DNA from: a virus
DNA length: 64,000 nt
Strand: one strand, 5' to 3'
IMG/VR virus record: IMGVR_UViG_3300042691_038416
Coordinates: 60,140-124,139 of that record
Shown: piece by piece, positions 29,858 through 50,658 of the stretch
Numbering within the stretch: position 1 is the stretch's first letter
Layout of the letters: each line of letters opens with the position of its first letter
Translations under genes and position numbers: made by a program
Notes under the pieces: model-generated
Seen by the model: the letters and a program-made list of their open reading frames with translations, nothing else
Databases searched by the model: none
Told to the model about the DNA's origin: nothing

Positions 29858-29907
29858 ATCTTTTCTTTCTTTATAAATATAGGTTAAAGATTTTAGGAAG
29901 CCAAATC

Positions 29908-31053
29908 TTAAATTTTAATTAAATCTTTCTCAAAAGTTTTTAAGTTCATTATAGTAATTTTAAAACAATCTAATTCAAACTCACCTATCTCTCCTGATTC
30001 AGTGATGATATCTGCTAAATTTTGAATGATATTAAATTGGTTCATACCAAATTTAAAAGTATCAAATTCAACTAAAATATAGTTTTGTTTTTCATTATGG
30101 TATGGTTTAATACGCTCCCATAAATCATATTTTGTATTTGGTTGCTCATTTTGAATATATGAATTATAGTCACAGTCAACATATATAGTAGAACACCACG
30201 GTTCAAGAACTTCTAATAATTGTTGATTACAGTTTTTAATTATAAATCCAATATCATACTTATGAGGAATAATTGGATATTGGTACTCATCATTTTTAAT
30301 CCAACTACCCCATTTACGTAAATAATTTCTAGCTGCTCGTTGAGATACTACTTTATAATAATCATCATCTTTACCTATTTGTTCATTCCATCTATGGCCT
30401 CTACAAGTTAAATGGTAAACAAAAGCGTCTCTACTTTGAACTAACTCATATCCATTTAAAATCCATCTTTGAAATATATCTGAGTCTTCATATGGAAACG
30501 GAGCAAATAGTGGATCATGACCTCCAATTGCTTGAAAATCTTCTTTATATAAAATCCAAGGCGCAAACATTCCTTTTGTTGTTTGATTTTTAAATTCATC
30601 TTGAGCTTCTAAACAATATTTTTCAAAAGCATCTATATTTAAAGTATCAAAATCAAGACCAAAATCCTTAATAATTTTTTCTTTACCTGCTGGATGGAGA
30701 GGAGGCTCAATTCTAGTACCACATACCACAGTAAGTGGTTTTAAATGTTTTAATAAATTTTTAGTATAATTAGGACCAACAATCATATCAGCATGTAATA
30801 TACCTACAATATTATTTGTAGCTAATTCTATACCTTTATCATATAGGATAGTATGCCCTACTCTAATGTCACTTTTATATATTATTAGTTTATCATCAAT
30901 AGATTGTAATCCTTGAATCCAAGACCATGTACCATCAGTAGAACCATCATCTAATAGTATTATTTCAGCTTCAGGTTCATGTTTTTTAATAGAAGTATAA
31001 ACATTTTTTAAATGTTGTAAATTATTATAACTTGGTATTATAAATGATATCAT
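29908..31053 (-). CDS. Glycosyltransferase family 2
   Basis: ISFIIPSYN, LDDGSTDGT, HAD, EDSD. Confidence 0.9.
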   Translation of the reverse strand: MISFIIPSYNNLQHLKNVYTSIKKHEPEAEIILLDDGSTDGTWSWIQGLQSIDDKLIIYKSDIRVGHTILYDKGIELATNNIVGILHADMIVGPNYTKNLLKHLKPLTVVCGTRIEPPLHPAGKEKIIKDFGLDFDTLNIDAFEKYCLEAQDEFKNQTTKGMFAPWILYKEDFQAIGGHDPLFAPFPYEDSDIFQRWILNGYELVQSRDAFVYHLTCRGHRWNEQIGKDDDYYKVVSQRAARNYLRKWGSWIKNDEYQYPIIPHKYDIGFIIKNCNQQLLEVLEPWCSTIYVDCDYNSYIQNEQPNTKYDLWERIKPYHNEKQNYILVEFDTFKFGMNQFNIIQNLADIITESGEIGEFELDCFKITIMNLKTFEKDLIKI

Positions 31054-31889
31054 AGTGGAAAGCATATTAAGTTAGTAGTTCCTTCTTGTAATGTTACATC
31101 TCTATAAGATAAAACAGGTTTATTTTTATCATATAAAGAATAATAATTAATTTCATTATACGCTACATAATTAACCTTACTAATAGCGTTTATTAATTCA
31201 TCTATTTCTTTAGCATTTAAACCAGCATATACTTCTGTAATTAGTATAGGTTTATTTGTATCTAAAATTTCTTTAATAGTAGGTATGATATCTTTATCAT
31301 ATCCTTCAGCATCTATTTTAACTAAACTTATGTTTTTAATAAAATCAGGATGATATTCTTTTAAAAATTTAGTGACATTAACTCCATAAACATCTAAAGG
31401 AAATGAATGTCCTGTTACTCCTATACCAGCATTTAAAGCCTCAGCAAATCCTCCATTACATAATCCTGGATCTGAGTAGTGAAATGTTAAGGGTCCGTCT
31501 TCTTTAACACATGCCAAATTATAAGGAATAATATTAGAATTTAATTTAGAGTTAGCCTCTAATACTTCATAAGCAGCAGGATTAGGTTCAAATGATATTA
31601 CTTTATTAGCAAATAATGAGAACATAATAGCAACATTTCCAGCTTGTGCTCCTATATCTAAAACATTCGAGTTAGGTTTAATTAATGTTTTTATTCCTTC
31701 TATATTTTTTAATACCCATTCTTGTCTTTGATGAGTAAAGAAATCTTCTTGATTAGGATGTTTCCATTTATAATAATTAATATTATAATTAGATATTTTA
31801 TGATTATTTGATTCTATAGGAAAATGTAAATTATTTTGTTTTAAATAATCTAAAACTGCTTCTCTATAGTTTTTTATTTTATCAATCAT
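31050..31889 (-). CDS. FkbM family methyltransferase
   Basis: VLDIGAQAG, SFEPNP, VKIDAEGYD. Confidence 0.9.
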   Translation of the reverse strand: MIDKIKNYREAVLDYLKQNNLHFPIESNNHKISNYNINYYKWKHPNQEDFFTHQRQEWVLKNIEGIKTLIKPNSNVLDIGAQAGNVAIMFSLFANKVISFEPNPAAYEVLEANSKLNSNIIPYNLACVKEDGPLTFHYSDPGLCNGGFAEALNAGIGVTGHSFPLDVYGVNVTKFLKEYHPDFIKNISLVKIDAEGYDKDIIPTIKEILDTNKPILITEVYAGLNAKEIDELINAISKVNYVAYNEINYYSLYDKNKPVLSYRDVTLQEGTTNLICFPL

Positions 31890-31890
31890 T

Positions 31891-32427
31891 TTATTTATAT
31901 AAAGTATTATATTCGTTTTTAAGCATACCTAACATATAAGAATCTAAGTATTCTCCATTTTTATAAACATGTTGTCTTAAAACTCCTTCATCTTTAAATC
32001 CTATTTTCCTATAAACATGAATTGAATCATTATTAGAATAAACTTCACACCAAATACGATTTAAATTTAATTCTTCAAATCCATATTTAATTAAAGTTAA
32101 TAACATATCTTTACCATAACCTTTTCCTCTATATTCTGGATTTCCTAAGGTTATTCCAAATTCACCAGTTTTATATATAGGATGTATATGATTCAAGAAT
32201 GCTACACCTATATTTATATTTGGATTATCAATAGGTTTAACTATAAAATGATGCCAGGTTGAATCCTTCATCATTATATTCTCATACCAATTTAATTGAT
32301 CTTCTAAATTAGATTCTCTATATTCTCTATAATATTTTCTATGCTCAGGATTATTTCTCCACTCAAGAAGTAAAGGCATATCTTCTTTTTGAGGTTTAAC
32401 TAAATAAATAAGATTTCCTTTTATCAT
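31891..32427 (-). CDS. GNAT N-acetyltransferase (PseH/RimL-like)
   Basis: WRNNPE, YRGKGYG, Y.KIGFKDEG.LR. Confidence 0.85.
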   Translation of the reverse strand: MIKGNLIYLVKPQKEDMPLLLEWRNNPEHRKYYREYRESNLEDQLNWYENIMMKDSTWHHFIVKPIDNPNINIGVAFLNHIHPIYKTGEFGITLGNPEYRGKGYGKDMLLTLIKYGFEELNLNRIWCEVYSNNDSIHVYRKIGFKDEGVLRQHVYKNGEYLDSYMLGMLKNEYNTLYK

Positions 32428-33068
32428 AATATTTCTCTAAGAAGTTTAAATTTCTCACAATATAAAGATCCTACTTCTGATCCCCAAACTTTCATTAGGT
32501 TTTCTATATTCTCATAACTTCTAGTATGAGGATATGGTCTCATTTCTTTATCATATACTTTTAATGCTTTTAATTTAGTTTCAACTTCATGTTGATTTAA
32601 GGTAAGATATGTTGTAGCATCAAAAGTAGTTAATGGATTATAATCTGTAGATGAAGGAACATAATATGAATATATTTTCATTTTTTTACCATATTGTGGT
32701 CTAAAGACAGTTAGAGCAGCTTTAGTTACAATTTGATGATCAATATTTAAATCTCCAGTAAAATGAGTAAATATAATATCTGGTTGAATAATAATATTTG
32801 ACTCTAAGAATTTACAAATTTCTAATAACGGAACCGAATCCATAGCATTATCTGGAAATGTTCCTGATTTGAATTCTTTTATTTTTAGTATCTCTGATAC
32901 TTCTTGTAACTTAGAATTCCTATTTTCTTCTTCATTATTTCTACTTCCTACTCCATCAGTAAAAGTAAGAAGTTGAACATGGTGGCCTTCACTAGTTAAT
33001 TTAAATATAGTTCCTCCACAACCTAAAGTTTCATCATCTGGATGAGCAGCTAATACTAAAATATTCAT
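32424..33068 (-). CDS. PIG-L family N-deacetylase
   Basis: AAHPDDETLGCGG, TH..GDLNIDH. Confidence 0.92.
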   Translation of the reverse strand: MNILVLAAHPDDETLGCGGTIFKLTSEGHHVQLLTFTDGVGSRNNEEENRNSKLQEVSEILKIKEFKSGTFPDNAMDSVPLLEICKFLESNIIIQPDIIFTHFTGDLNIDHQIVTKAALTVFRPQYGKKMKIYSYYVPSSTDYNPLTTFDATTYLTLNQHEVETKLKALKVYDKEMRPYPHTRSYENIENLMKVWGSEVGSLYCEKFKLLREIL

Positions 33069-33718
33069 TTTTTTCTAATTTTAACATCTGAAATGATTTC
33101 ATTATTTTCTAATTTAGCTCTACTAAATTCAAGTCTAAATTCTCCTATATCAATATAAGCATTAGGATATTCTTTTGAATCTAAAATTCTTATTTGATTA
33201 TATATAGAGTAAAGTGAATCATCAAATTTAATTTGATTATCTTTTTTTCTTTTATAAATTTGAGATTCTCCAAATTGAGGTCTAGGAATTAAATCTTCAT
33301 TAATACATTTCAAAATTAAATCTTTAGTGATAATAGCTATAGTAATCCAAATATCAGTTATATTTCCTTGTAATGTTATAGGTGATGAACAATATATTCC
33401 TCCAGAATCAATCTCTTCTTTCATTTCTATAATATTAACATAACTAGAAGTTATTTCATCTAAAATTTGATTTTGAAGTGGGCTACCTCCTTTACCTTTA
33501 GGTAAATTTCCAGTATGAATAACAGCACATTTATAATTCTCAAAAATATCTTTAGAAACTATTTCAGACCAATGAAAGAAAAAAATCCAATTTGGATTGT
33601 ATTTCTCTACAATTTCTTTAGTTAAAGAATTAACCCAATGTATATTGATTTTTTGTTTTAAAGAATTATATAAAAATTCTGACCATTCATTATTTTTAGA
33701 TACTAGTAATATTTTCAT
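33065..33718 (-). CDS. Sugar N-formyltransferase (Fmt-like)
   Basis: IHTGNLPKGKGGSPLQNQI, IDSG, YPNAY. Confidence 0.85.
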   Translation of the reverse strand: MKILLVSKNNEWSEFLYNSLKQKINIHWVNSLTKEIVEKYNPNWIFFFHWSEIVSKDIFENYKCAVIHTGNLPKGKGGSPLQNQILDEITSSYVNIIEMKEEIDSGGIYCSSPITLQGNITDIWITIAIITKDLILKCINEDLIPRPQFGESQIYKRKKDNQIKFDDSLYSIYNQIRILDSKEYPNAYIDIGEFRLEFSRAKLENNEIISDVKIRKK

Positions 33719-34689
33719 ATAAAACTATCCTCCTCATAATCTTTTTCAGCTGTTTTACCTAATATAAAATTAAAACTAGTAGCTGAGATATTTCCTTCTA
33801 AAAATGGTCGTTTAGTAGTGATATTATTTTTAGTAAAAATATCTCCTTTTTTAATATTAGTTTTAGCTACTATTGAACGTCTCGCTTTAATAAAATCTTT
33901 TTCTGATTTAGAGTATTCTTCATTTTGTGGAGTGAAAGCAATTTCTGCTATTCTAATATTAGAAATCATCTCCATTAATTGAATAGGCTCTAAAGCAAAT
34001 GGATGATCAGGACCGGGTAAATGTTTACTTAATGTAAAATGTTTTTCTATCACTTGGGCTCCAGCAGCTACTGCTAATGATGGAATTAGAGTAGACATAG
34101 TGTGATCTGATAAACCACATTTAAATCTAGAATCTAATGATAATTTTTTAACTGTGTTTAAATCAATATCATCTATAGGAGTTGGATAAGCATTATTACA
34201 ATGTAATAATGTTATATCATTAGTATATTTAGAAGTTATATTTAATAATTTATCTATCCATTCATATTTAAATCCTATACCTAAAGATATAATTAGAGGT
34301 AATTTAGATGATGCTACCATCTCTACAAATCTAAAATCTGTAGCCTCAAATCCTGCTATTTTTAATCGTTTGACTCCTAAAGCAACTAACTCATCAACTG
34401 CTTTTTCATCGAATGGAGTAGACATAAATTCAATATCTTTTTCATCACAATATTGTTTTAAATCTTTTTGCCATTCACGAGGTAACTCAATATCTTTAAT
34501 TAGTTGATTGATATTTTTATAACCAGCAAAATCAGGGACATTTTTAGCATATAATGTTTCTGAAGAATATGTTTGGAATTTAACAGCGTCTGCTCCAGAA
34601 TGAATTGCTACATCTATTAAAGCTAAGGCTTGATCAAAGTTACGATTATGATTTGCTCCTGCTTCTGCTATTATAAAAGTTGTATTCAT
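33715..34689 (-). CDS. neuB: Nonulosonic acid synthase (NeuB/PseI family) with SAF domain
   Basis: IIAEAGANHN, ADAVKFQTY, FMSTPFD, GLSDHT, IEKHFTL, RRS. Confidence 0.93.
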   Translation of the reverse strand: MNTTFIIAEAGANHNRNFDQALALIDVAIHSGADAVKFQTYSSETLYAKNVPDFAGYKNINQLIKDIELPREWQKDLKQYCDEKDIEFMSTPFDEKAVDELVALGVKRLKIAGFEATDFRFVEMVASSKLPLIISLGIGFKYEWIDKLLNITSKYTNDITLLHCNNAYPTPIDDIDLNTVKKLSLDSRFKCGLSDHTMSTLIPSLAVAAGAQVIEKHFTLSKHLPGPDHPFALEPIQLMEMISNIRIAEIAFTPQNEEYSKSEKDFIKARRSIVAKTNIKKGDIFTKNNITTKRPFLEGNISATSFNFILGKTAEKDYEEDSFI

Positions 34690-35198
34690 TGATTCTCTTT
34701 TTGTTCGTATTCTAATATTTTAGCATTAACTCTTTCAAAATAATAAGATATTTCAACTAAATAATCTTTAGCTCTTTCATTTGTTGTTGTATCTTTTATT
34801 TTCTTTAGCAATTCAAATACACTATGATGAGAATGATCTAAGTATTGTTGACCTAATACTCTTTTATCCTCAGTAAATTCACTTCTAGATTTATTATTTC
34901 CTTCCCAGTCATTTCCTGGAGCTTTACTATAATTTCCTAATTTTATTACAGCATTATTAGCAAAATTTACTAGAAGTATAAAATCTTTATGGTATTCAAA
35001 ATCAGTTAATCCATTTGCATTTCTTAACATCTGACAAATAGTACGAGGATCATCTATATTAGAAGAACCTCCCTTTACTGATTTATACTCAGAATATTCA
35101 TGTAATGGCATATGTTTTTCATTTGAAAAACAAAATAAAGTTTCTGTGTCTACTACTTGATTAACTATAAAAAAATTAGATAATGGTGGTTTATTCAT
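34686..35198 (-). CDS. Hypothetical protein in glycosylation locus
   Basis: Coupled at both ends (ATGA overlaps); no recognised motif. Confidence 0.65.
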   Translation of the reverse strand: MNKPPLSNFFIVNQVVDTETLFCFSNEKHMPLHEYSEYKSVKGGSSNIDDPRTICQMLRNANGLTDFEYHKDFILLVNFANNAVIKLGNYSKAPGNDWEGNNKSRSEFTEDKRVLGQQYLDHSHHSVFELLKKIKDTTTNERAKDYLVEISYYFERVNAKILEYEQKENQ

Positions 35199-36016
35199 AT
35201 TAAATGTTTCAATAAATTATTAGCTTCTTTAAAATTATTCATACATTGTTGTTTATTATTAACCTGATTCAGAAAATAAATAATTTCATTAATATACATT
35301 TGGTTATCTATTTTAAGATGGACTCGTTTTAAATAATCTTTTTCTAATATATCATAATAACGTTGATAATCCTCTGATAGATAGTTTAGAGTAAAATCAG
35401 CTATAGTTCCAGATTCAAATTCTATTCTTCCTGTGACTAAATCCTCAGTATCATTAGTTATATCAGTTAATTTATTTTTAATATAAGAAATATTTTTTAA
35501 AGGGCCAAACTTATAATAAAGATAATCTAATTCATGGATTGCGTCTAATAATATTCCTCCTCCTAAATTTTTATTAGAACTATAAGATTTTAAATGATTA
35601 GTTCCTGGTCTCCATTTTTTAAGATTATACCCAAAATAAACATTAATATATCTACTATTAGAATCAATTTGTTGTATTTCAGGTATAAATCTTAAATTAC
35701 AACCAACCATAGTTATTAAATTTTTTTCTTTAACTATAGCTAGTAATTCTTCAATACCATCTATTTTTGTATAAAAAGGTTTTTCACAAAATATAGACAC
35801 ACCATATTGAGCTAATTTAATACAGTGTTCAATATGATTAATATTAGGAGTACAAACTAAACCTATATCAAAATTTTCTTGTAAAATATTATCTATATTA
35901 TCAATCTCATCTATATCAACAATTCGGGTTTGTACTCCTAAATTATTTAGATTAGATGAATGTCTTTTACCTATAGACCCACCACCTATTATTATTGCTT
36001 TTAAATTTTTCTCCAT
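35195..36016 (-). CDS. Gfo/Idh/MocA oxidoreductase
   Basis: IGGGSIGKRH, CEKP, GGGILLDAIHELD. Confidence 0.9.
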   Translation of the reverse strand: MEKNLKAIIIGGGSIGKRHSSNLNNLGVQTRIVDIDEIDNIDNILQENFDIGLVCTPNINHIEHCIKLAQYGVSIFCEKPFYTKIDGIEELLAIVKEKNLITMVGCNLRFIPEIQQIDSNSRYINVYFGYNLKKWRPGTNHLKSYSSNKNLGGGILLDAIHELDYLYYKFGPLKNISYIKNKLTDITNDTEDLVTGRIEFESGTIADFTLNYLSEDYQRYYDILEKDYLKRVHLKIDNQMYINEIIYFLNQVNNKQQCMNNFKEANNLLKHLI

Positions 36017-36795
36017 TGAATTAAACTACCAACATTATGGAATCCCCCATCTCCACAAAACCAATCTGGTTTATATGTGTCAATTTTTATAAGATTCTCA
36101 TTTTCAAGATCAGTTAATATTTGTATTAAATTTTGATTATAATTTGGATTTCCAGAATATTGAGGATTACCATTTTCCATTTGAAATCCAACTGGTTCTA
36201 TATGAGTGAATTTAATATTATTTATTTTTAATAGATCTAAGAATAATTGTTTATCTAAATAAGGTATTTGTTCAACTGAGTAACTAGTGTAGAAACATAT
36301 ATTTTTATAATTTTTTTCTATTATAAAAGAATATAAACTACTCCAATCATAATAATTAAAATGTAAAGATATTATTGGTAAATCATATTTTTTTACTATA
36401 GCGCTACAAACATCTTGTCCTCCTGCTGTGTATTCTCCGGCTATATATGTTACATTTGGATATTTAGAAGAAAATTCTTCATATAACATAAAAATATTTC
36501 TCCCAAATCCACTACCTAATTCTATAACAGCATCAACAGAATCATCTATTTGAGAACCTATAGTTGACATAACAGATTGTCTTTTTAAAGATGCTGCTTC
36601 TTTAATTGTTACTGTTTTAATATTATTATCATATATAATATTTACAGTATTTTTTTCTATAAATTCATTAGATTTAAATTGATAAGCTGGGTTAAATTGA
36701 TCCCAGTAGTTTAATTTAGTTATAAGATCTTTTAAAGATAATTCTTCTGAACTTATTTGGGAAATTAAAGAACCCCAATTTGATTCGTAACTCAT
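36001..36795 (-). CDS. Class I SAM-dependent methyltransferase-like protein
   Basis: VIELGSGFGRN, SVEQIP, HIEP. Confidence 0.7.
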   Translation of the reverse strand: MSYESNWGSLISQISSEELSLKDLITKLNYWDQFNPAYQFKSNEFIEKNTVNIIYDNNIKTVTIKEAASLKRQSVMSTIGSQIDDSVDAVIELGSGFGRNIFMLYEEFSSKYPNVTYIAGEYTAGGQDVCSAIVKKYDLPIISLHFNYYDWSSLYSFIIEKNYKNICFYTSYSVEQIPYLDKQLFLDLLKINNIKFTHIEPVGFQMENGNPQYSGNPNYNQNLIQILTDLENENLIKIDTYKPDWFCGDGGFHNVGSLIQWRKI

Positions 36796-36806
36796 ATTTT
36801 TTATTT

Positions 36807-37496
36807 TTAAAGGTTAATATATAATTTTTCTGCTATTTCAAATTGCCAAGGCCAATCAATATCAAAACATTCAATTTCTTCCATCACAAAGAAATTTGGA
36901 TCTTTTGGTTGTTTAAATGAACCCATATATATTCCATTAGCTACATCTTCAGTTGAACCCGCGTATAATGAGTGAGCTGCTTCATAGCATGTCTCTACAA
37001 ATTTAGTTTCTAATGTTGCTAAGTATTTATCTTCTCCAAAAAAACGATTTATCATAACTCCATCATTATTAAATAAAAATGTTTTCTTTTCAAATACTCC
37101 AAATAATCCGTTTGAATCTACTTCAAGAAACTTGTTAACAAAATTATCTATTGTTTCTACTTTTAAAAGTGGATTACAAGCATTTATAAGTACAAAATAT
37201 TTAAAAGGTAATTTGTCATGCCACTCAAATACTTTTTGAATTGTTACAGGTTCTTGAGTTGATTCTTCACTTCGTACAAAATAGTTGATTCCATATTTAT
37301 TAGCTATATCAATTAATTCTTGATCCATAACTGATAGATAGAAATTTTCTTTAGGAATAATAGATGATTGTAAAACTTTATTTATAGCTATTTCAAATAA
37401 ATTAGAATTAGCAAATGGTTTAAGCATTTTATTTGGAACTCGAGTTGATTGAGTTCTTGCTTGAATAACAAAAATTATATCTTTTATATTTTTCAT
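36807..37496 (-). CDS. Acylneuraminate cytidylyltransferase (NeuA/PseF family)
   Basis: IQARTQSTRVPNKML, CNPLL, FDIDWP. Confidence 0.88.
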   Translation of the reverse strand: MKNIKDIIFVIQARTQSTRVPNKMLKPFANSNLFEIAINKVLQSSIIPKENFYLSVMDQELIDIANKYGINYFVRSEESTQEPVTIQKVFEWHDKLPFKYFVLINACNPLLKVETIDNFVNKFLEVDSNGLFGVFEKKTFLFNNDGVMINRFFGEDKYLATLETKFVETCYEAAHSLYAGSTEDVANGIYMGSFKQPKDPNFFVMEEIECFDIDWPWQFEIAEKLYINL

Positions 37497-37497
37497 A

Positions 37498-38076: not shown

Positions 38077-38077
38077 A

Positions 38078-38941: not shown

Positions 38942-38951
38942 AAATTTTTTA

Positions 38952-40232
38952 TTAGTTGTTTTTTCTAAAAATTGCTATTGGGCGTTTTCCTTCTAAGACA
39001 CTATCAATATTATTAAGATTTTCACTTAAAAATTTAAATGCTTTATCAGCAGCATCAATTGTTTTTTGAATATCTTTTTTAGTATGAGCGAAACTTATAT
39101 AAATCACATTTGGAAATAATATTCCTTGTTTTACCATTTCTTGGTAAAATAAAGCTTTTAATCCATCAGCATCTGGGTATGTCTCAGAATTAAAAGTTAA
39201 ATTATGTCTAGGAGCGTCACCAGCAAAATTAATATCTAGATTATATTTTTTAGCTGCTTCTTTGATTCCTAAGTCAAGCATATTTCCTAATTCCCAAATA
39301 TAATTGTAGTTTTTAGTTTTAAGTTCTTTAATAGTTTCAATAGCAGCTACTAATGATAAACATTCACCTCCAAAAGTCATAGAATAAAAAACATAATCTA
39401 ATTCTTTCATAAATTCTTTTTTACCAGCTATAGCGGCTAAAGGCATTCCATTAGCTACAGCTTTACCTAAACAACATAAATCAGGAGTTACACCAAAATA
39501 TTCTTGAGCGCCACCTAAACTCCATCTAAACCCAGTTACTACTTCATCAAAAATAAGAACAACTTTATATTTATCACACAAATCTCTTACACCTTGTAAA
39601 AATCCAGGAGCAGGAGTAGTTAATGCTTGTGGCTCAATAATAACAGCAGCTACATCATCTTTTTTAAGTAATTCTTCTAAACTATCTAAATTATTAAACT
39701 CAAATTCATCTATTAAGTCTTTTAAACATTTAGGTACACCATAATCTCTAATTGAAATGGCATGCCAATCTCCCCATCCATGATAACCACCTTTAGGTTT
39801 TAATATTTTTTCTTTACCTGTATATGAACGAGCTATTCTTACTGAGGCTAGATTAACATCTGTTCCGTTTTTACCAAAACGAACTTGCTCAGCACAAGGT
39901 ACCACTTCACTAATTAATTGAGCTAATTCTTGTTCTAATAAAGTAGGCCAAGAAAATATAATACCATTTTTAAGTTGTTTTTTAATAGCTTTATTTGTAC
40001 GATTATGGTTATAACCTAGAATAATTGGTCCTAAACCACACATATAATCAAGATATTTTTTATCATCAAGACCATATAAATAGGCTCCTTTACCTGATTT
40101 TACAAATTTAGGATAAACTCCATCTACAAATTGATCAGGACATTTACTCATTGTTTGAGTACCTCTAGGCATAAGTCTAAGAGCATTATCCCAAAGTTCT
40201 TGTTCATTAATTTTCTTCTTTTTAATTAGCAT
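38952..40232 (-). CDS. Class III PLP aminotransferase (glutamate-1-semialdehyde aminomutase-like)
   Basis: YLDY..GLG, KNGTD, YHGW, LIFDEVVTGFR, LGKAVANG. Confidence 0.9.
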   Translation of the reverse strand: MLIKKKKINEQELWDNALRLMPRGTQTMSKCPDQFVDGVYPKFVKSGKGAYLYGLDDKKYLDYMCGLGPIILGYNHNRTNKAIKKQLKNGIIFSWPTLLEQELAQLISEVVPCAEQVRFGKNGTDVNLASVRIARSYTGKEKILKPKGGYHGWGDWHAISIRDYGVPKCLKDLIDEFEFNNLDSLEELLKKDDVAAVIIEPQALTTPAPGFLQGVRDLCDKYKVVLIFDEVVTGFRWSLGGAQEYFGVTPDLCCLGKAVANGMPLAAIAGKKEFMKELDYVFYSMTFGGECLSLVAAIETIKELKTKNYNYIWELGNMLDLGIKEAAKKYNLDINFAGDAPRHNLTFNSETYPDADGLKALFYQEMVKQGILFPNVIYISFAHTKKDIQKTIDAADKAFKFLSENLNNIDSVLEGKRPIAIFRKNN

Positions 40233-41223
40233 CTTTTAAACCTTTATTTATTAGTTTTGTTAAATAATCTATATCATGATTTAAAAATATACCTGAGTTA
40301 AATTCTTGACCTGTATATTTTTCTAAAATATATTCTTTTTCTGTGTATTGAGGAATAACACAAAGTAATTTATTACAATGTTCAGTTGTGAATCCTGGTA
40401 AGAAATTTGAGTGATATGTGAATGGCAACTCAGTTTTTGCTATCATATCTTCATGAAATTTTTCTCCTGGACGCATTCCTATAGTATTATATTTAATTTC
40501 TTTATTTGTTATTTGAGATAAGGCTTTAATTATAGTTTCCATATCAAATGAGTCAAAATAAGGAATAAATACTTCTCCTCCAATACTATTAATTAAAGAA
40601 GATAATACAGTATTAACTGCATCTTCTAATGTAAATAAAAATCTTGTACAATCCAAAGAAGTAACATTAATACTTTTATTTTGGTTAACTAAATCTAACC
40701 ATAAAGGAATAAATGAACCTCTACTAGCTATTACATTACCGTATCTAACTGAACTAAAAATAGTATTAGGAGAATTATAATCAGAATTTGTAAATAATCT
40801 TTCTGCTGTGAATTTAGATGCTCCATATACATTAATAGGAATACATGCTTTATCTGTAGAAACTAAAATACATTTATCAACGTTAGCTTCCATAGCAGCA
40901 TTAGCAACATTTATAGAACCCTGGATATTTGTTTTAACACATTCTTCAGGATAATATTCCATGTCATCAATACGTTTTAAAGCGGCGGCGTGGATAATAT
41001 AATTCGGTTTATGTTTTTTACATGTTTTGACTAATTGTTCATAATCTCTAACATCACCAATTACTTTAATAATTGATTTATCTTGACCAAAATATAAAGC
41101 TTGTTTACCTTCATCACGACTATAAACAATAATTTTACAATTATATTTTTTAAGACGTTGGATGATAGCTCTACCTAATGAACCTGTTCCTCCAGTAATT
41201 AATATAGTTTTATTATTAAACAT
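40222..41223 (-). CDS. pseB: UDP-GlcNAc 4,6-dehydratase (PseB/FlaA1-like)
   Basis: ITGGTGSLG, SRDE.KQ, HAAALK, STDKA, YGASK, RYGNV..SRGS, RPGEK.HE. Confidence 0.88.
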   Translation of the reverse strand: MFNNKTILITGGTGSLGRAIIQRLKKYNCKIIVYSRDEGKQALYFGQDKSIIKVIGDVRDYEQLVKTCKKHKPNYIIHAAALKRIDDMEYYPEECVKTNIQGSINVANAAMEANVDKCILVSTDKACIPINVYGASKFTAERLFTNSDYNSPNTIFSSVRYGNVIASRGSFIPLWLDLVNQNKSINVTSLDCTRFLFTLEDAVNTVLSSLINSIGGEVFIPYFDSFDMETIIKALSQITNKEIKYNTIGMRPGEKFHEDMIAKTELPFTYHSNFLPGFTTEHCNKLLCVIPQYTEKEYILEKYTGQEFNSGIFLNHDIDYLTKLINKGLKDAN

Positions 41224-42400
41224 ATAAATTTTCTATTTCATTAACAATTCTTTCTGATGCTTTAAAATCATTAAAGTCATCGAATATTTTTAACACTGAT
41301 TTAGCATTAGGAGAATCTATTTCTAACCATTTAAAATTATCATCATAAATTATTAAATTATTTTTAATAATATTAATTAAATTATTTTTTCTATCAATAG
41401 CCTTATCAATAAATTTAGGATCTATTTTATCAACTAACTCTTCAAATGAATTTACTCTCATAATTGGAGCCCAAAAATCATAATGTTTAGTATGATTATA
41501 ATTTTGTAGATCAAATCCTTTTTCAATTCCAATATCTTTAATATCAAAAATAACTGTTTTTTTATTTAACACTAAAGAATAATACATTATTGAACTTATT
41601 ATGCCAACATTTATATCTGAAGCTTTGACTATAGATTGAAATGAGGCTTCATCTTTTATTACTTTAATATAAGGAATATTTTTTAGATTATCAAAATTAT
41701 TTTCAAAATCTTTTGAAAAATCAATATATTCTACAGGATGAGGTTTATAAAATAATTCATATTCACTATGAAGTTTTTCTACTATATTTTTAGTTTTATC
41801 TAAAATCTCATCATGCATAAATTTATTCATAGAACCATAAATAATAATAATTGGTTTTATTTTTTTATATGGTTCTATATCAATAAGACTATCAAATTTA
41901 GAATTACCTACTATTTTAGTTTTATGAGTTACCCAACTAGCTATTTTTTTAGTTTCAAATACCCAGTCACTATGATCAAAAAACATATCTATTAAATTTG
42001 TAGGAAAAGACTTTCTACTATATAATTCTAATTTAGAGTCAATTTCTGAGTATAACCAACTTGAGTTTTCAATACAACATATTAAAGTTCCTAGTTGTTT
42101 AAATTCTACAAACATTGATTTTTCTGGTTCCCAATTTTCTCTACTTACTAGTAATACATCAGGAATAAAAGGTAAGGTTATACCACCTAAAGTTTTAGCA
42201 ATATATGTTTTGTTTGACTCTGTTACATTAGAATCATACATAAAACTATTTAATGAAATGTGAGGATATTGAGTACTTAATTCATTTGTATATAAAAAGA
42301 AAAAATTATGATCTCGTTTTTTTATTTCTTTAACAATGTTAATTAATTCTACAGTACATCTATCACTAGTAGAAACTATTAATATATTTTTCTTTTTCAT
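41216..42400 (-). CDS. GT-B fold protein, candidate nonulosonate transferase
   Basis: VGNSKFD, YKPHP.E, SS...., ASERI; typical of sialyl-/glycerophospho-transferase-like folds. Confidence 0.55.
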   Translation of the reverse strand: MKKKNILIVSTSDRCTVELINIVKEIKKRDHNFFFLYTNELSTQYPHISLNSFMYDSNVTESNKTYIAKTLGGITLPFIPDVLLVSRENWEPEKSMFVEFKQLGTLICCIENSSWLYSEIDSKLELYSRKSFPTNLIDMFFDHSDWVFETKKIASWVTHKTKIVGNSKFDSLIDIEPYKKIKPIIIIYGSMNKFMHDEILDKTKNIVEKLHSEYELFYKPHPVEYIDFSKDFENNFDNLKNIPYIKVIKDEASFQSIVKASDINVGIISSIMYYSLVLNKKTVIFDIKDIGIEKGFDLQNYNHTKHYDFWAPIMRVNSFEELVDKIDPKFIDKAIDRKNNLINIIKNNLIIYDDNFKWLEIDSPNAKSVLKIFDDFNDFKASERIVNEIENLYV

Positions 42401-43359
42401 TTTAATTTTTCAATATCGTTCTCAACCATTTTCTTAACCATATCACTAAAACTAGTTTTTGGAGACCATCTTAACTCAGAGTTTGCTTTAAAATAACTAC
42501 CTCGTAACACATCTACTTCAGCTGGTCTCATAAATCTTGGATCTTGTTTAATATAAGAAGACCAATCTGTTATTCCAACAACTTTAAAAGCCTCATCTAA
42601 AAATTCTCTAATAGATCTAGTTTCATTAGTAGCAATTACATAGTCATCTGCTTTATCTTGTTGTAACATTAACCACATTGCTTCAACATAATCAGGAGCA
42701 TATCCCCAATCTCGTTTAGCATCTAGATTACCTAATGTAATATGATCTGAGAGTCCTAAATGGATTCTAGCTACACCATCAGATATTTTTCTAGTTACAA
42801 ATTCAATACCTCTTCTTTCACTTTCATGGTTAAATAAAATACCACTACAAGCAAACATATTATATGATTCTCTATAATTCTTTGTAATCCAATGTCCATA
42901 TAATTTAGCTACACCATATGGTGATCTAGGATAGAAAGGAGTATTTTCATTAGCTGGATTTTCTACCATTCTACCAAACATTTCTGAGCTTGATGCTTGA
43001 TAGAATTTAATTTTTTCATGACCATACTCTCTAATTGCTTCAAGTATTCTTAATACTCCTAAACCAGTCACATTAGATGTTTGTTCAGGTGTATTCCAGC
43101 TCTCACCTACAAATGATTGAGCTGCTAAGTTATATACTTCATCTGGGTTAGATTCTTTTAATGCTCTTAAAAGTGAATTTTGATCTGTTAAATCACCTTT
43201 TATAAAATTAATTTTACCTTCTAAGTGTTTAATATTAGTTCTATTTTCACCTGAACTTCTTCTCTCTAAACCATATATAGTATAACCTTTTTGGAGGAGG
43301 AAGTCAGCTAAATGACTTCCATCCATACCATTTATACCTGTAATTAGGGCTGTTTTCAT
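42397..43359 (-). CDS. gmd: GDP-mannose 4,6-dehydratase
   Basis: ITGINGMDGS, YNLAAQSFV, QASSSEMFG, SPYGVAK, LFNHES, RDWG.A.DYV. Confidence 0.95.
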   Translation of the reverse strand: MKTALITGINGMDGSHLADFLLQKGYTIYGLERRSSGENRTNIKHLEGKINFIKGDLTDQNSLLRALKESNPDEVYNLAAQSFVGESWNTPEQTSNVTGLGVLRILEAIREYGHEKIKFYQASSSEMFGRMVENPANENTPFYPRSPYGVAKLYGHWITKNYRESYNMFACSGILFNHESERRGIEFVTRKISDGVARIHLGLSDHITLGNLDAKRDWGYAPDYVEAMWLMLQQDKADDYVIATNETRSIREFLDEAFKVVGITDWSSYIKQDPRFMRPAEVDVLRGSYFKANSELRWSPKTSFSDMVKKMVENDIEKLK

Positions 43360-43979
43360 AATGAATTGTAATAACTATTTTGTTTTTCTTGTCTTTCTAC
43401 TGTTTTAGGATGATATAAAGCATAATCTTCTAATCCAGGTAAATGAGCATAATTTTTATATCCATCTAACTTTTCATGAACTTTATTAATCCATTTGATT
43501 TCAGGAGTATTTTTATAAATTCTCCATTGATGATCAGGCCATTGAATCCATCCTTTTTCATTTATTTTCCAACCCCATCTTTTAACATAATTTTCATCTA
43601 CTTTAGGATATAAAGTATTTACTCTAGGAACTAAGATGATATCAGATTCATTGTTTTCTAAAATGAATGGTAAACTTTCTATTAAAGTTATGTTAGGATA
43701 TTCATCAGCGTCAATTTGAAAGATCCAATCTCCAGAACATATATGATTTAACTCATTTTTCCAGTTTGCAAAATGTCCTTTAAATTCACTTTCTTTTAAA
43801 GTGATCCAATTTGCTGATGAGTATCTATAAAGTTGATCTAATAATTCTTGTGATGCTTTTGGTTTATCAAGTAAGACTACAATTTCGTCTTCTTGTCTTA
43901 TATTTTCTTTTAGAAGAGGAATTAAACAACTAATTTCTTCTAGTTCATTACAAACTGTTATAGCATAACTTATTTTCAT
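43356..43979 (-). CDS. Glycosyltransferase family 2
   Basis: ISYAITVCNE, WIFQIDADE, WPD.Q.R, KVHE. Confidence 0.85.
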   Translation of the reverse strand: MKISYAITVCNELEEISCLIPLLKENIRQEDEIVVLLDKPKASQELLDQLYRYSSANWITLKESEFKGHFANWKNELNHICSGDWIFQIDADEYPNITLIESLPFILENNESDIILVPRVNTLYPKVDENYVKRWGWKINEKGWIQWPDHQWRIYKNTPEIKWINKVHEKLDGYKNYAHLPGLEDYALYHPKTVERQEKQNSYYNSL

Positions 43980-44016
43980 ATAATTAAATATATAAAACTT
44001 TTTTTATTAAGCCAAA

Positions 44017-44481
44017 TTATTTTTCTTCTTCAGGAAAAATTCCTATATAAGAAAGTGCTTCCATAAAGTCTTTCATTTCATAATTCATAATAGAACCCAT
44101 ATCCATTCTATATTCATAGAATTGTCCTGGTTTACCTTTGATTGGATATTTTTCTTTTTCCTCTTCAGCTACTTTTACTGCTTTTACAGCTGACCATTTA
44201 GAATCTTCTTTAGAAGTACCATTATAGAACACCATACCTTGTTGAGGTAAATTAATAGTTGTTGGCATCCAAACTAAATCTTCATCATCTGTAAATAAAA
44301 GATCCTTATATAATTCAGGTAAAACAGAAATTTGTTTTTCATAAAATTCCTGTCCTTCTTTCATTAAAGAGTTTGTAGTAAATCCACAACCAAAACAAGA
44401 ATATGTTTTAATTTCAGGACCATTTTCTGTTACATAACAAGCATCTGATCCACAATGCTTACATATTATTAGATTATCCAT
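44017..44481 (-). CDS. Zinc-ribbon hypothetical protein
   Basis: CKHCGSDAC..CFGCG. Confidence 0.7.
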   Translation of the reverse strand: MDNLIICKHCGSDACYVTENGPEIKTYSCFGCGFTTNSLMKEGQEFYEKQISVLPELYKDLLFTDDEDLVWMPTTINLPQQGMVFYNGTSKEDSKWSAVKAVKVAEEEKEKYPIKGKPGQFYEYRMDMGSIMNYEMKDFMEALSYIGIFPEEEK

Positions 44482-45787
44482 TTTCTTCTATTTTTTGCAA
44501 TTTTGGTAACTCAATTTTCTTTAATTGTGGTAATTTAAGTTGAACTTGTTTAGGAAATTCAGGAATACGTTTTAAATATTCACCTAACTTCTCAGTCATT
44601 TTTTCAAAATTAAAATTTGTCTTAGCAAAATATGCTTGACGTTTAGCTCCGTCTGAGTAGTTTTTATAGTTTTCATAAACATCTCTTAAATAAAATCCTA
44701 CTTGACCTAGATCAGGTGAGAACCATTTAAATTCTTTATGTAACCATTGATTAGCTGCGCTTGGATGGACATTTGTTAATGTACCCTCAATTAATGGAGT
44801 AAATTCTTTATTTAAGAAATCTAAATGACCACTCCAATTAGTTGTAATTAATGGTTTTTTACTTTGAGTAAATTCAACTAACGGTAAACCATATCCTTCT
44901 CCTTTAGTCAATGAAACCATTGCTTTAATTTTAGGATGATTATAAATCTCATTCATTTCCTCATCTGTAAATTCACCATGTAATAGATAAACATTAGGTA
45001 AATCAGTTGAATTTACAGTGTCCCGAATTACTTTTATACGTTTCAAAATCTCATCTCTATCCATATAACTAGGACCTACAATAGATGTTTTTAAAACTAG
45101 TGCTGGGCGATTTTTCTTGTTTTTAAAAGTCTCAAAAAACGCTTTAATTAATAGACCTACATTTTTTCTATCCTCGCCTACATCTCCTTGTAACCAATGT
45201 CCTACAAACAGATAACAAAATTCTTCAGGAATTGTATTTAACGCTCCAATTTCTTTATTTGGTGTTTCTAAAAATTTATAGATATTAGTATTCATACCTA
45301 CAAATAATACTTCAACAGGTGTTTTTAACTCAATATTTCCTTCAAACATTTTAGTTTGAGGATTTTGTTTTTGGTATTTAGAAATTTCAAATCCTTTTTT
45401 ACCATGTTCAGATGATACTAGAACTAAATCCATTCTATTACATCCCTCAATCCAATCACCTGGAACTAAATCTGTTTCTAATCCTGCTGTGATTCCAATA
45501 TTGTATTTACCTACTTTTTGGAATTCAGTTGGAATAGTCATCCAAATAAAAACATCAGGCTGAGTTGTTAATTGACCTTGTATCATATAGTCATTTAAAA
45601 ATTTCCACTCAGGATTATCATCAATAAACCCATTTGGAGTATTTCCCCAACCGCAAGAAATAATTTTAATATCCCACTCGTCTTTTTTTAATTCAATTAT
45701 TGATTTAGTAGTGTCACGAGCTAAACTACCATATCCTGATAAGGTATCTACTGGAGCGTAGATTACACAACTATTTTTACCGCTCAT
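44474..45787 (-). CDS. Glycosyltransferase (GT4-like, GT-B)
   Basis: SGYG, DRKN..LIKAF, KGEGYGLPLVEF, T.WSGHLDF. Confidence 0.85.
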   Translation of the reverse strand: MSGKNSCVIYAPVDTLSGYGSLARDTTKSIIELKKDEWDIKIISCGWGNTPNGFIDDNPEWKFLNDYMIQGQLTTQPDVFIWMTIPTEFQKVGKYNIGITAGLETDLVPGDWIEGCNRMDLVLVSSEHGKKGFEISKYQKQNPQTKMFEGNIELKTPVEVLFVGMNTNIYKFLETPNKEIGALNTIPEEFCYLFVGHWLQGDVGEDRKNVGLLIKAFFETFKNKKNRPALVLKTSIVGPSYMDRDEILKRIKVIRDTVNSTDLPNVYLLHGEFTDEEMNEIYNHPKIKAMVSLTKGEGYGLPLVEFTQSKKPLITTNWSGHLDFLNKEFTPLIEGTLTNVHPSAANQWLHKEFKWFSPDLGQVGFYLRDVYENYKNYSDGAKRQAYFAKTNFNFEKMTEKLGEYLKRIPEFPKQVQLKLPQLKKIELPKLQKIEENG

Positions 45788-45788
45788 A

Positions 45789-47228
45789 TTAATAAAGTAA
45801 TTTATGATTTAAAACTCTTTTTTGAATATTTTTAGTATTGATAAGTTCAAATTTTTCTCTAGGTGTCCAAGTAGCAAATAAATGATCTAATGTTTCAATA
45901 ATTCGTTTACCCATTTTTTCACCTGTGAAACCTGCTTCATTACTTAAAGCCCACTCACGTCCTTTTAATCCTCTTTCTTTAAGTTTTTCTCTACCTAAAG
46001 TATAAGCAAATTTAATCTGATTAGCCGCATCTTCAGCTGTACATCTATCATCCCAAATATAAGGTGTGACTGGTGATCCTTGAATTGAACGATTTGTTGG
46101 ATATACTGGTAATGCCCATTCACCATGTTCTCTTAAAGTACCATTATGGTTTGAAGGAAAATCAGCATCAAAATCTACCCATTTACCATTCTTAACAAAT
46201 CGCATTTGGTCTTGCATTCCACCAGTCACATTTGCAATAATTGGATTTCCAACTAAAAGCGCTTCTGTTAAACTTAATCCCCAACCTTCATTACTTGTTA
46301 ATAAGATCTGAGTGTCACTCATATTATATAACCAACTCATTTGTTCTGGTCCTAAACCAGGAGGTGTAAATATAATATTATATTTTGGATTTCCATCAAA
46401 CAAATAATCACATATTGCTCCTAAATCTGTTCCATTATCATCTACTACATGAGTATGAAGTACAAAAGCACATTTCTTAGCTTTTTCTTCAGATAATCCA
46501 TCAATAAAATATTTGTATGCTAAAAGTGTATCTGGAATTTGTTTACGACGAATGTTTCTAGAGTTAAAGAATAAAACAAAATCATATTCTTTTCCTTTAA
46601 AAATTTGACTTTTAAATTCTCTAAATTTAGGATCATTCTTATCAATTGGTTTAAAAATATTTTCATTTAAACCATGAGGAACATATTCAATAATTTTTTT
46701 CTTAGCTTTTTCTTCACCTAAAACTAATTTATTGATATTAACAGTTTGTTTAGAAATACCTAATAATGCATCACATGCTTCATAGAATGGTCTATTATAC
46801 ATTGGAGCTGGATAATCATCCCAAATATTGAGATAAATAATAGGCATTTTTCTTCTAATTTCATTTTCAATCTGAAATAACCACATAAAGTATCTTGGAT
46901 CAGTGATCAAGAAAATGGCATCTGGTTTTTCAATTTTAATGAGTTGTCTAATTAGATTTGGATCACCATATCCATCTACAGGATACATCACAACAGAAGC
47001 ATCTGTTAAACCTGTATTTGTATTAGTGTCTCCAGATAAATCTAATCTTTTTCCTTTATCAGGATGATTGATTGCTCCTGCAATCTGAACCCAATTAAAA
47101 TGTTGAGCTGTATTTAAAACCATTTCACGAGCAACAGTTGCTACTCCAGAATGTACTCTTAAATCATCACAAATTAATAAGATCTTTTTCCTCTCATTTT
47201 GAGGTAAATAAGCAAAACTTGAATTCAT
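45789..47228 (-). CDS. Glycosyltransferase (GT4-like, GT-B)
   Basis: HSGVA, VPHG, RNIRRK, NEGWGLSLTEA, TGGMQDQ. Confidence 0.88.
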   Translation of the reverse strand: MNSSFAYLPQNERKKILLICDDLRVHSGVATVAREMVLNTAQHFNWVQIAGAINHPDKGKRLDLSGDTNTNTGLTDASVVMYPVDGYGDPNLIRQLIKIEKPDAIFLITDPRYFMWLFQIENEIRRKMPIIYLNIWDDYPAPMYNRPFYEACDALLGISKQTVNINKLVLGEEKAKKKIIEYVPHGLNENIFKPIDKNDPKFREFKSQIFKGKEYDFVLFFNSRNIRRKQIPDTLLAYKYFIDGLSEEKAKKCAFVLHTHVVDDNGTDLGAICDYLFDGNPKYNIIFTPPGLGPEQMSWLYNMSDTQILLTSNEGWGLSLTEALLVGNPIIANVTGGMQDQMRFVKNGKWVDFDADFPSNHNGTLREHGEWALPVYPTNRSIQGSPVTPYIWDDRCTAEDAANQIKFAYTLGREKLKERGLKGREWALSNEAGFTGEKMGKRIIETLDHLFATWTPREKFELINTKNIQKRVLNHKLLY

Positions 47229-47239: not shown

Positions 47240-47425
47240 TTAGTCTTTAATTTTTGGATTTGAATAATTGGTAACTTGTTTTCTAAAATCTTCATTAGTA
47301 AGATATAAATCAATTGCCCGATTAACAAGCTTATTTAAAGAAAATTTTCTCTTAACACATTCGATTTTAAAGTTGTCAAATAGATCCTTGTCTACTTTGA
47401 CAGAGGTTAATTGTGTATTGTCCAT
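47240..47425 (-). CDS. Ribbon-helix-helix-like small DNA-binding protein
   Basis: LTSVKV..DLF..FK.....FSL.KLV.RAI.LY. Confidence 0.6.
   Translation of the reverse strand: MDNTQLTSVKVDKDLFDNFKIECVKRKFSLNKLVNRAIDLYLTNEDFRKQVTNYSNPKIKD

Positions 47426-50657: not shown

Positions 50658-50658
<1 letters not shown>
50413..50658 (-). CDS. Hypothetical protein
   Basis: RVPPGDRW motif; coupled to groEL. Confidence 0.65.

Follow-up and report, generated by a model that had tools for sequence, protein, structure and literature searches.

The right half of the IMG/VR viral record IMGVR_UViG_3300042691_038416 (124,139 bp), a 64-kb stretch referred to here as the window, contains a gene island of about 17 kb (29908-47228) whose products appear to make, decorate and attach a nonulosonic acid. 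Open reading frame (ORF) calling yielded 20 intact ORFs in the island, all on the minus strand, as is every long ORF in the window (Table 1); CheckV puts the completeness of the record at 76%. A first-pass annotation of this DNA had described a tightly coupled run of sugar genes with two family 4-like glycosyltransferase genes (GT4b and GT4a) upstream, and nearly all of its gene calls agree with Pfam and NCBIfam, which gave domain calls for 15 of the 20 proteins; leads exist for three more. Both GT4 proteins match Glycos_transf_1, and the coupling is indeed close, with 13 of 19 junctions overlapping and 7 of the 19 being 4-nt ATGA overlaps. The surroundings are those of a phage: the left half of the record holds genes for a portal, the large terminase (TerL), a baseplate wedge and a primase, and the window also encodes a family-B DNA polymerase (PolB), clamp loader, DNA ligase, prohead protease, endolysin, GroEL, a ThyA-like protein and a GTP cyclohydrolase. 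By terminase, the nearest cultured phages are Flavobacterium phage vB_FspM_immuto (59%) and Microcystis phage Mel-JY01 (53%). The virus is an uncultured myophage related to immuto, a Baltic Sea phage, and its host phylum is probably Bacteroidota.

Table 1. Features of the island and its flanks, in gene order. Coordinates are window positions. aa, amino acids; AF2, AlphaFold2; CMP, cytidine monophosphate; GDP, guanosine diphosphate; GT, glycosyltransferase; pLDDT, predicted local distance difference test; SAM, S-adenosylmethionine; UDP-GlcNAc, uridine diphosphate N-acetylglucosamine.
Feature	Coordinates	Strand	Basis and remarks
PD-(D/E)XK exonuclease	47467-48414	minus	phrog_69, E 1.1e-27; upstream flank
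61-aa ORF between exonuclease and GT4b	47240-47425	minus	ParG/RHH_10, faint (E 0.04-0.06)
GT4b, family 4, GT-B	45789-47228	minus	Glycos_transf_1, 31 bits
GT4a, family 4	44474-45787	minus	Glycos_transf_1, 27.2 bits
154-aa protein	44017-44481	minus	Zn_ribbon_10, faint (E 0.0044); accompanies frame
Promoter motif TTGGCTT-N16-TATATT	43987-44015	minus	sigma-70-like; heads 17-gene unit 43979-29908
GT2b, family 2, 207 aa, soluble	43356-43979	minus	Glycos_transf_2, 34 bits
GDP-mannose 4,6-dehydratase (Gmd)	42397-43359	minus	TIGR01472, 425.4 bits (cut-off 415)
394-aa GT-B protein	41216-42400	minus	candidate CMP-nonulosonate transferase (sialyltransferase/TagB-like); AF2 pLDDT 88.9
PseB-type inverting UDP-GlcNAc 4,6-dehydratase	40222-41223	minus	Polysacc_synt_2, 260.9 bits
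Class-III (HemL-like) aminotransferase	38952-40232	minus	Aminotran_3, 172.9 bits
PhyH-like Fe(II)/2-oxoglutarate dioxygenase	38078-38941	minus	PhyH, 24 bits (cut-off 22; marginal)
192-aa protein, probably SAM methyltransferase	37498-38076	minus	MetW, E 0.044
Nonulosonate cytidylyltransferase, NeuA/PseF type	36807-37535	minus	CTP_transf_3, 53.6 bits; passes Pfam cut-off
264-aa protein, class-I SAM methyltransferase-like fold	36001-36795	minus	Atlas; no Pfam match
Gfo/Idh/MocA oxidoreductase	35195-36016	minus	GFO_IDH_MocA, 55.4 bits, plus C-terminal domain
170-aa helical protein	34686-35198	minus	translationally coupled on both sides; no Pfam/NCBIfam match
Nonulosonic acid synthase, NeuB family with SAF domain	33715-34689	minus	NeuB, 237 bits
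Formyltransferase-fold protein	33065-33718	minus	Formyl_trans_C_2, 59.8 bits; N-terminal domain E 0.004
PIG-L/LmbE-type de-N-acetylase	32424-33068	minus	PIG-L, 76.8 bits
PseH-like GNAT N-acetyltransferase	31891-32427	minus	Acetyltransf_3, 81.8 bits
FkbM-family methyltransferase	31050-31889	minus	TIGR01444, 76.7 bits (cut-off 37.7)
GT2a, family 2, 385 aa	29908-31065	minus	Glycos_transf_2, 75.9 bits; last gene of unit
DksA-like zinc finger and HNH-like protein	28290-29278	minus	zf-dskA_traR, 31.7 bits; phrog_14736 HNH; downstream flank

Nonulosonic acids are surface sugars of bacteria, archaea and animals with roles in recognition and immune evasion, and the pathway to CMP-pseudaminic acid (CMP-Pse) through PseB, PseC, PseH, PseG, PseI and PseF is known from Helicobacter and Campylobacter. 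The first-pass annotation had invoked this full set. Gene content supports a phage-borne pathway that yields a CMP-activated nonulosonic acid, tailored with N-acyl and methyl groups and possibly by hydroxylation, but the set itself is incomplete: searches of the 124-kb record returned no match to DegT_DnrJ_EryC1 (PseC) or TIGR03590 (PseG), nor to Epimerase_2 (NeuC/LegG) or PF01973 (Maf; MptE-like/DUF115), and the aminotransferase belongs to class III. The dehydratase scored 270 bits on the PseB model (cut-off 407.75), 204 on FnlA and 54 on LegB (cut-off 475). Among PDB sequences, it matched 2GN4, which we take to be Helicobacter PseB/FlaA1, with 208 bits, CapE with 180 and PglF/WlaL with 111, an FnlA-like enzyme also being among the closest. 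By these scores, it is nearest to the inverting PseB/FnlA/CapE types and far from retaining PglF. The GNAT protein reached 89.2 bits on the PseH model TIGR03585, 4 bits short of the cut-off of 93.1, and the Pfam matches of the 20 proteins included no hexapeptide-repeat N-acetyltransferase family. The cytidylyltransferase, the sole one in the record, scored 46 bits on the PseF model (cut-off 205.7). Finally, Gmd would supply the precursor of a second 6-deoxyhexose.

The type of the synthase was assessed in two ways, as the first-pass annotation had proposed, and the outcomes differed. On profile hidden Markov models (HMMs), it scored higher for NeuB_NnaB (308 bits, cut-off 400) than for PseI (259 bits, cut-off 340) and fell below both cut-offs; the closest PDB sequences were SpsE (165 bits), PseI (162) and Neisseria meningitidis NeuB (138). 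In contrast, a quick maximum-likelihood tree of 74 sequences, with an arbitrary root, SH-aLRT support and five references, of which four were labelled only by automatic annotation (three) and/or neighboring genes, put it among 43 viral rows that form one clade (support 99), whose neighbors are two PseI references (91). These two were taken from Bacillus thuringiensis and Aureibacter, out of canonical clusters of the pseB-pseC-pseG-pseH or pseB-pseC-pseF type; the group does not include E. coli K1 NeuB, a Rhodobacteraceae NeuB with neuC next to it or the Azospirillum NeuB. Pseudaminic-like therefore seems the better label, though two of the six canonical enzymes are absent; stereochemistry is not readable from sequence, and we infer it. 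Existing names did not type the enzyme either, since its metagenomic relatives are named SpsE by JGI in some cases and legionaminate synthase in others, and plasmid proteins called neuB (34-36% identity) or pseI (34-35%) are about equally distant from it. At 38-39%, the nearest plasmid rows have either no annotation or just the name NeuB family.

A pattern scan of IMG/VR gave 47 further viral loci with a NeuB 49-76% identical to that of the window. Each locus was taken to 10 kb on either side of NeuB, although some contigs end sooner and absences from single loci are therefore soft. ORFs were predicted with a simple caller and clustered by BLASTP. Pfam was then run on one representative of each of 64 clusters, namely a selection of those having three or more members and a single cluster of two. 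Besides NeuB (47/47), the core of these loci comprises a PseB-like dehydratase (45/47) and a cytidylyltransferase (43/47); CST-I/MptE-like (Maf-type) genes occur in 22. A GenBank phage collection contained a NeuB match in 3 of 50,697 records, none of this lineage. In metagenomes this type of NeuB is common; the best 120 clusters, 68-100% identical to the window NeuB and including its own protein, were all environmental. Two or three NeuB paralogues are present in 25 of the 47 loci (L010, L017, L024, L032 and L041 among them), with up to three cytidylyltransferases per locus, suggesting more than one nonulosonate per phage. The tree also contains a second viral NeuB clade of 21 rows, approximately 280 aa in length, apart from the primary clade.

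Comparison of the 47 loci and the two cultured relatives showed conserved glycosyltransferases around a varying set of sugar genes. Immuto preserves the order exonuclease, GT4b, GT4a, 154-aa protein, GT2b, GT2a and HNH at 43-61% identity (43%, 53%, 54%, 46%, 61%, 47% and 45%, respectively), and Mel-JY01 retains the exonuclease (37%) and all four transferases at 25-49% (GT4b 36-49%, GT4a 43%, GT2b 38%, GT2a 25%). GT4a matched no GenBank phages other than four immuto records and Mel-JY01. The same arrangement, a slot flanked by the PD-(D/E)XK nuclease and by DksA-like/HNH genes with GT4b-GT4a-GT2b at one end and GT2a at the other, is also found in the IMG/VR loci L012, L014 and L022; taken singly, the exonuclease holds the same position in 14 related loci, GT4b is present in 21 of the 47, GT4a in 28, the 154-aa protein in 14 and the HNH-like gene in 12. 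What differs is the middle. Here it runs from Gmd to the FkbM methyltransferase and is given as 13 genes; in immuto, whose flanks are the PD-(D/E)XK nuclease and both the DksA-like and HNH genes, a DegT-type amino-sugar set without NeuB occupies the slot, and in Mel-JY01 a methyltransferase and two uncharacterized genes, again without NeuB, do so. We read this arrangement as a conserved transferase frame with a cargo of sugar genes, swappable between GT2b and GT2a. The 61-aa ORF next to GT4b, which has faint ribbon-helix-helix matches and a positional counterpart of 183 nt in immuto, may regulate the island.

The aminotransferase of the cargo, listed by the first-pass annotation, is a class-III enzyme and not the DegT type of PseC. 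Among proteins of known structure, its best matches are glutamate-1-semialdehyde aminomutases (up to 275 bits), and aminoglycoside C-6' aminotransferases reach 162 bits. Across the 47 loci, 34 carry a DegT gene only and 12 a class-III gene only; none has both, and the single locus with neither lies on a truncated contig. In both kinds of locus, the aminotransferase directly follows the dehydratase, and their synthases interleave in the tree, with NeuB of the DegT locus L010 being sister to those of the class-III loci L007 and L012 (support 99). Two further features accompany the class-III type: the Gfo/Idh/MocA oxidoreductase is present in all 12 such loci, and the cytidylyltransferase is of a distinct subtype, 64-85% identical to that of the window in class-III loci versus 39-50% in DegT loci. 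Bacterial relatives of the enzyme (80 genomic loci, 29-43% identity) stem mostly from Thermoleophilia, without sugar context, and have a NeuB nearby in six cases.

The island also encodes a series of putative tailoring enzymes. PIG-L occurs in 12 of the related loci, each time with a formyltransferase-like gene alongside, a pairing that supports removal of an N-acetyl group followed by addition of another acyl group. The first-pass annotation had proposed N-formylation by such a pair. Both genes are present, whereas the formyl group is uncertain: in the formyltransferase-fold protein, H68 and D104 are invariant, but the viral proteins lack the Asn that precedes the His by two positions, although an Azospirillum homologue has it. 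We take this Asn to belong to the N-x-H motif and catalytic triad of formyltransferases, and regard the viral protein as a candidate N-acyl transferase, perhaps for N-formyl. An identification of this gene as DpdN, the formyltransferase that modifies immuto DNA, was discarded, since a comparison with immuto yielded nothing at E <= 0.01. Gene adjacency on Azospirillum lipoferum plasmid AZO_p6 echoes the phage NeuB-formyltransferase arrangement: there, neuB precedes a member of the formyltransferase family, and a pair of Gfo/Idh/MocA genes, a transferase and an aminotransferase follow. Of the three methyltransferases initially proposed, the FkbM protein is solid and the other two remain leads. 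For the 264-aa protein, Atlas feature scores were 0.98, the ten best named matches belong to one methyltransferase clan (template modeling score 0.76-0.77), and an ELGSGFGRN motif is present. For the 192-aa protein, all eight weak PDB profile matches were of methyltransferase type (best E 0.0085), the motif reads FGCANGRD...GFD, and in the loci L005 and L026 a Methyltransf_11 gene occupies its slot. The PhyH-like protein, possibly a tailoring hydroxylase, belongs to a cluster found in 14 loci, and its relative in L005 scores 30 bits.

The cargo also contains a 394-aa GT-B protein, which could either transfer the activated sugar or release it from UDP at an earlier step. A VIA structure search ended in a tie between TarL (Z 20.3) and TagF (19.4) on one side and UDP-GlcNAc 2-epimerases (19.9-19.1) and NeuC (17.9) on the other. 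The protein scores 19.7 bits on Glyphos_transf, below the cut-off, and its Atlas neighbors carry Glyphos_transf or polysialyltransferase domains. Its FYKPHPxEP motif aligns with FIKPHPKEP of the E. coli K1 polysialyltransferase (hhalign, E 0.0011), while the same program produced no alignment with E. coli NeuC and the profile matched B. thuringiensis PseG with E 0.37; hhalign comparisons with single sequences were weak throughout. Run against PDB sequences, the profile returned only spurious nucleoporin matches and, for the C-terminal part, a weak 2-epimerase hit (E 0.33). Pse and legionaminic acid (Leg) transferases of Tannerella also carry the HP motif (PMC5420450). On balance, the Glyphos_transf score, the Atlas neighbors and the motif suggest that the protein is probably a CMP-sugar transferase; an assignment as UDP-sugar 2-epimerase or hydrolase is less plausible and would be our second choice.

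The promoter proposed at 43985-44016 is real as a motif. TTGGCTT-N16-TATATT occurs nine times in the window, compared with 0.02 copies expected from shuffling, and 13 times in the 124-kb record, where four sites fall in the left half; all copies are on the coding strand. The window sites fall within 2778-16550 and at 29876-29904 and 43987-44015. Since copies precede GT2b and follow GT2a, the genes from 43979 to 29908 can be read as one 17-gene unit, with GT4b, GT4a and the 154-aa protein forming a separate upstream unit. Other copies adjoin tRNA genes, small ORFs and the primase gene, and this placement, together with the sigma-70-like sequence, suggests an early or middle promoter class. The motif probably marks one temporal class of transcription units.

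No exporter of the Wzx, Wzy or ABC kind had been noticed in the island, and membrane-segment scans bear this out, although no family models for Wzx, Wzy or phosphoglycosyltransferases were run. None of the 20 island proteins contains a hydrophobic 19-mer with a Kyte-Doolittle value of at least 1.6 (GT2a, the last gene product, peaks at 1.09 and has no membrane segment), and there is no polytopic membrane protein among the 201 ORFs of the record. With all island proteins soluble and no polytopic protein in the record, assembly would take place in the cytoplasm, without a phage-encoded carrier or export system.

Taken as a whole, these data are probably best explained by a phage glycosylation island that makes, decorates and attaches a nonulosonate of the pseudaminic kind, the enzymatic steps and the acceptor being inferred from gene content. 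In this model, the cargo yields a CMP-activated 5,7-diamino-type nonulosonic acid. The PseB-type enzyme would dehydrate UDP-GlcNAc, the class-III aminotransferase would aminate the product in place of PseC, and the PseH-like GNAT would N-acylate the amino sugar. After release of the sugar from UDP by a step without an assigned gene, the NeuB/PseI-type synthase would condense it with phosphoenolpyruvate, and the single cytidylyltransferase would activate the resulting nonulosonate. Tailoring would include exchange of the N-acyl group by PIG-L and the formyltransferase-fold enzyme and the action of up to three methyltransferases, the PhyH-like dioxygenase and the Gfo/Idh/MocA oxidoreductase, with the 394-aa protein as the likeliest CMP-sugar transferase.

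Several observations weigh against this account. All Pse equivalog models remain under their cut-offs and the synthase scores higher as NeuB than as PseI, while the link to PseI references depends on a support of 91 in a quick tree with five references. Neither the PseG nor the Epimerase_2 search of the 124-kb record found a gene for the UDP-sugar hydrolase step, and with the record 76% complete, missing genes could lie off the contig. Regarding the 394-aa protein, the fold is tied between TagF/TarL-like transferases and 2-epimerases, the His of the HP motif varies among 18 relatives (Y, N or L in some), and the best-conserved residues sit in the N-terminal half, with a C-terminal DG-AS-RI pattern resembling 2-epimerases. 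In addition, four of the six bacterial class-III loci bearing NeuB also have a DegT gene, and Aeromonas group I flagellin islands are described with the order pseB-pseC-reductase-pseF-class III aminotransferase (PMC7874193); these neighborhoods suggest that the class-III enzyme may serve in tailoring and not as a PseC substitute. The class-III enzyme, the oxidoreductase and the cytidylyltransferase might thus act as a trio that aminates the CMP-linked sugar late, converting a hydroxyl to an amino group and giving a nonulosonate with an amination pattern different from standard Pse or Leg, an outcome compatible with either glycan target. The co-occurrence of the three genes in 12 of 12 loci, the distinct cytidylyltransferase subtype, the precedent in bacteria, where a class-III gene can neighbor PseF and a reductase with PseC also encoded (PMC7874193), and the aminoglycoside C-6' aminotransferases among the structural relatives all fit such a scheme. 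The latter enzymes act after an oxidase. In the phage loci, however, the class-III gene sits exactly in the DegT position and the two never occur together, DegT and class-III loci draw on one NeuB lineage, which suggests the same kind of hexose substrate, and no separate 4-ketoreductase is available to handle the dehydratase product. Replacement of PseC is accordingly the simplest reading and has, in our estimate, slightly better than an even chance; late amination by the trio is unlikely, though worth keeping in view, and some other function accounts for the remainder.

That the block could be an assembly chimera or host contamination, which the first-pass annotation had named as grounds for abandoning its reading, is hardly credible. 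Its GC content (0.245-0.294) is somewhat below that of much of the window, but adjoining phage stretches are similar (0.276-0.285), the genes run on one strand throughout with phage genes on either side, and each junction is also seen in separately assembled IMG/VR contigs, such as L012, L014 and L022, and in two isolate genomes. Near-identical 31-mers were moreover found in 20 run records from 15 studies, labeled estuary, seawater, lagoon, wastewater and similar, which describes the habitat as aquatic at most. As to what receives the sugar, both proposals made at the outset, a soluble cytoplasmic acceptor and entry into host glycan assembly, are live. A phage-encoded protein, probably of the virion, is our leading candidate at somewhat under an even chance. 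Retention of the frame in phages of Flavobacterium and Microcystis, which belong to different phyla, fits an acceptor supplied by the phage, although this argument rests on two isolates. Other support comes from the Maf-type genes of the 22 relatives, whose CST-I/MptE-like family is known for direct protein O-glycosylation (PMC5420450), and from GT4b, whose best match among solved sequences is the chlorovirus glycosyltransferase B736L (E 9.7e-6). A virion target is not favored by the promoter, which is of the sigma-70 kind and not of the late structural type. The same early-type promoter fits host surface conversion, in which the phage CMP-sugar and soluble transferases act on a host lipid-linked glycan at the inner membrane face and host flippases and transferases export the product, altering the cell surface and, for example, blocking other phages. 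Such a scheme needs no phage export genes, the pelagimyophage authors proposed this role for glycosyltransferases in hypervariable islands (PMC7029224), and Tannerella, a member of Bacteroidota, caps its general protein O-glycan with Pse or Leg derivatives through a TagB-like HP-motif transferase (PMC5420450). Against it, the same four transferases occur in Flavobacterium and Microcystis phages although the envelope glycans of their hosts should differ, no initiating phosphoglycosyltransferase was seen in membrane-segment scans (family models were not run), and a lytic phage with a short infection would presumably gain little from slow surface turnover. We consider surface conversion, and with it a host glycan acceptor, unlikely but a serious contender, and acceptors of any other sort slightly less probable again.

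Modification of the phage DNA, also raised initially, is very improbable. Phages do glycosylate DNA bases, and the window encodes nucleotide-metabolism proteins (ThyA-like, MazG-like and GTP cyclohydrolase). Six transferase-like genes and two sugar pathways, however, point to an oligosaccharide, the GTP cyclohydrolase fits a 7-deazaguanine route, and the DNA of immuto, which has the same frame, contained only dA, dC, dT and fdPreQ1 in liquid chromatography-ultraviolet-tandem mass spectrometry (PMC10516641).

Some observations lie beside these questions. Large proteins encoded at window positions 16554-20682 and record positions 9819-11601 contain 25-31% Ser+Thr, including regions dense in S/T; phrog_25468 is common to two of them, and one has a match to a family of virion structural proteins. 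As structural-type proteins, they are possible, if weak, candidates for glycan acceptors, S/T richness being common in fiber proteins. The GTP cyclohydrolase I (63224-63859), the MazG-like pyrophosphatase (56228-56872) and a long ThyA-like protein (61246-62241) are encoded outside the island. Because immuto replaces all G by fdPreQ1, this phage may carry 7-deazaguanine DNA as well, and the rest of that pathway would lie past the contig end. The phage GroEL is full length (50658-52292; phrog_5725, E 5.5e-149) and is preceded by a small ORF (50413-50658). Within the island, the 170-aa protein is of a rare kind, 22 relatives having turned up in a set of 1.84 billion representatives; its fused relatives (408-423 aa) have no Pfam or NCBIfam match either, and its helical model (pLDDT 90) found no matching fold, with a best Foldseek E of 0.9 and a best VIA Z of 6.7 to generic helices.

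If the preferred account of a phage glycosylation island holds, making and attaching nonulosonates takes up 10-15% of the genome in a widespread group of aquatic phages, and the swapping of sugar genes among closely related members would be a sign of strong, shifting selection on the glycan that they make. Carried on the particle, such a glycan could affect adsorption, decay, grazing and recognition by host defenses, and would amount to phage diversity of a hidden sort, not captured by gene-sharing networks. The exchange of DegT for class-III enzymes around one synthase lineage constitutes a natural experiment in pathway evolution and makes the role of the widespread, uncharacterized oxidoreductase-cytidylyltransferase-class-III trio testable. 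Similarly, immuto, a cultured relative with the same frame (host Flavobacterium sp. LMO8), makes the acceptor question approachable. More speculatively, and with a low chance of being right in full, immutovirus-like phages may coat a protein of their own particle with a base built by the four transferases and a variable nonulosonate cap, giving serotypes much like O-antigens; the class-III cap, made without PseC and PseG and possibly by late amination of the CMP-sugar, would then be an undescribed nonulosonate.

Parts of this picture have precedents. Prophage enzymes that modify capsule nonulosonates of Acinetobacter have reportedly been described. In literature searches, which left out subscription journals and supplements, we found no account of this island or of a replacement of PseC. 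With the canonical CMP-Pse pathway, including the Bacillus thuringiensis and Aureibacter plasmid clusters used for comparison, the island shares a short inverting-type Polysacc_synt_2 dehydratase, a PseH-like GNAT, a NeuB-family synthase placed near PseI references, a CTP_transf_3 cytidylyltransferase and a tight operon; it differs in lacking DegT and PseG, in having class III and Gfo/Idh/MocA instead, and in being carried by a lytic-looking phage. The hypervariable regions of pelagimyophages (PMC7029224) are likewise variable, glycosyltransferase-rich sugar regions of large aquatic myophages, and Hurwitz et al. (2015), as cited in PMC6359870, reported pseI among the viral auxiliary genes of Pacific Ocean viromes; these reports contain no full nonulosonate pathway, frame or PseC replacement, and the roles considered are O-chain change and motility. 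Tannerella forsythia, whose phylum is probably that of the host, provides a proposed GT-B/TagB-like HP-motif CMP-nonulosonate transferase (PMC5420450), but its glycan is made for export, and the likeness of the 394-aa protein is weak, a 2-epimerase match being equally good. A further parallel in gene content is formed by the Aeromonas group I islands of polar flagellin glycosylation (PMC7874193), with a polymorphic pse base, an inserted reductase, PseF and class-III enzyme, deacetylases and methyltransferases, and some subgroups that also lack PseG. Aeromonas, however, keeps PseC beside the class-III enzyme and uses Maf-1 on flagellin, whereas the phage has neither of these and brings four extra glycosyltransferases.

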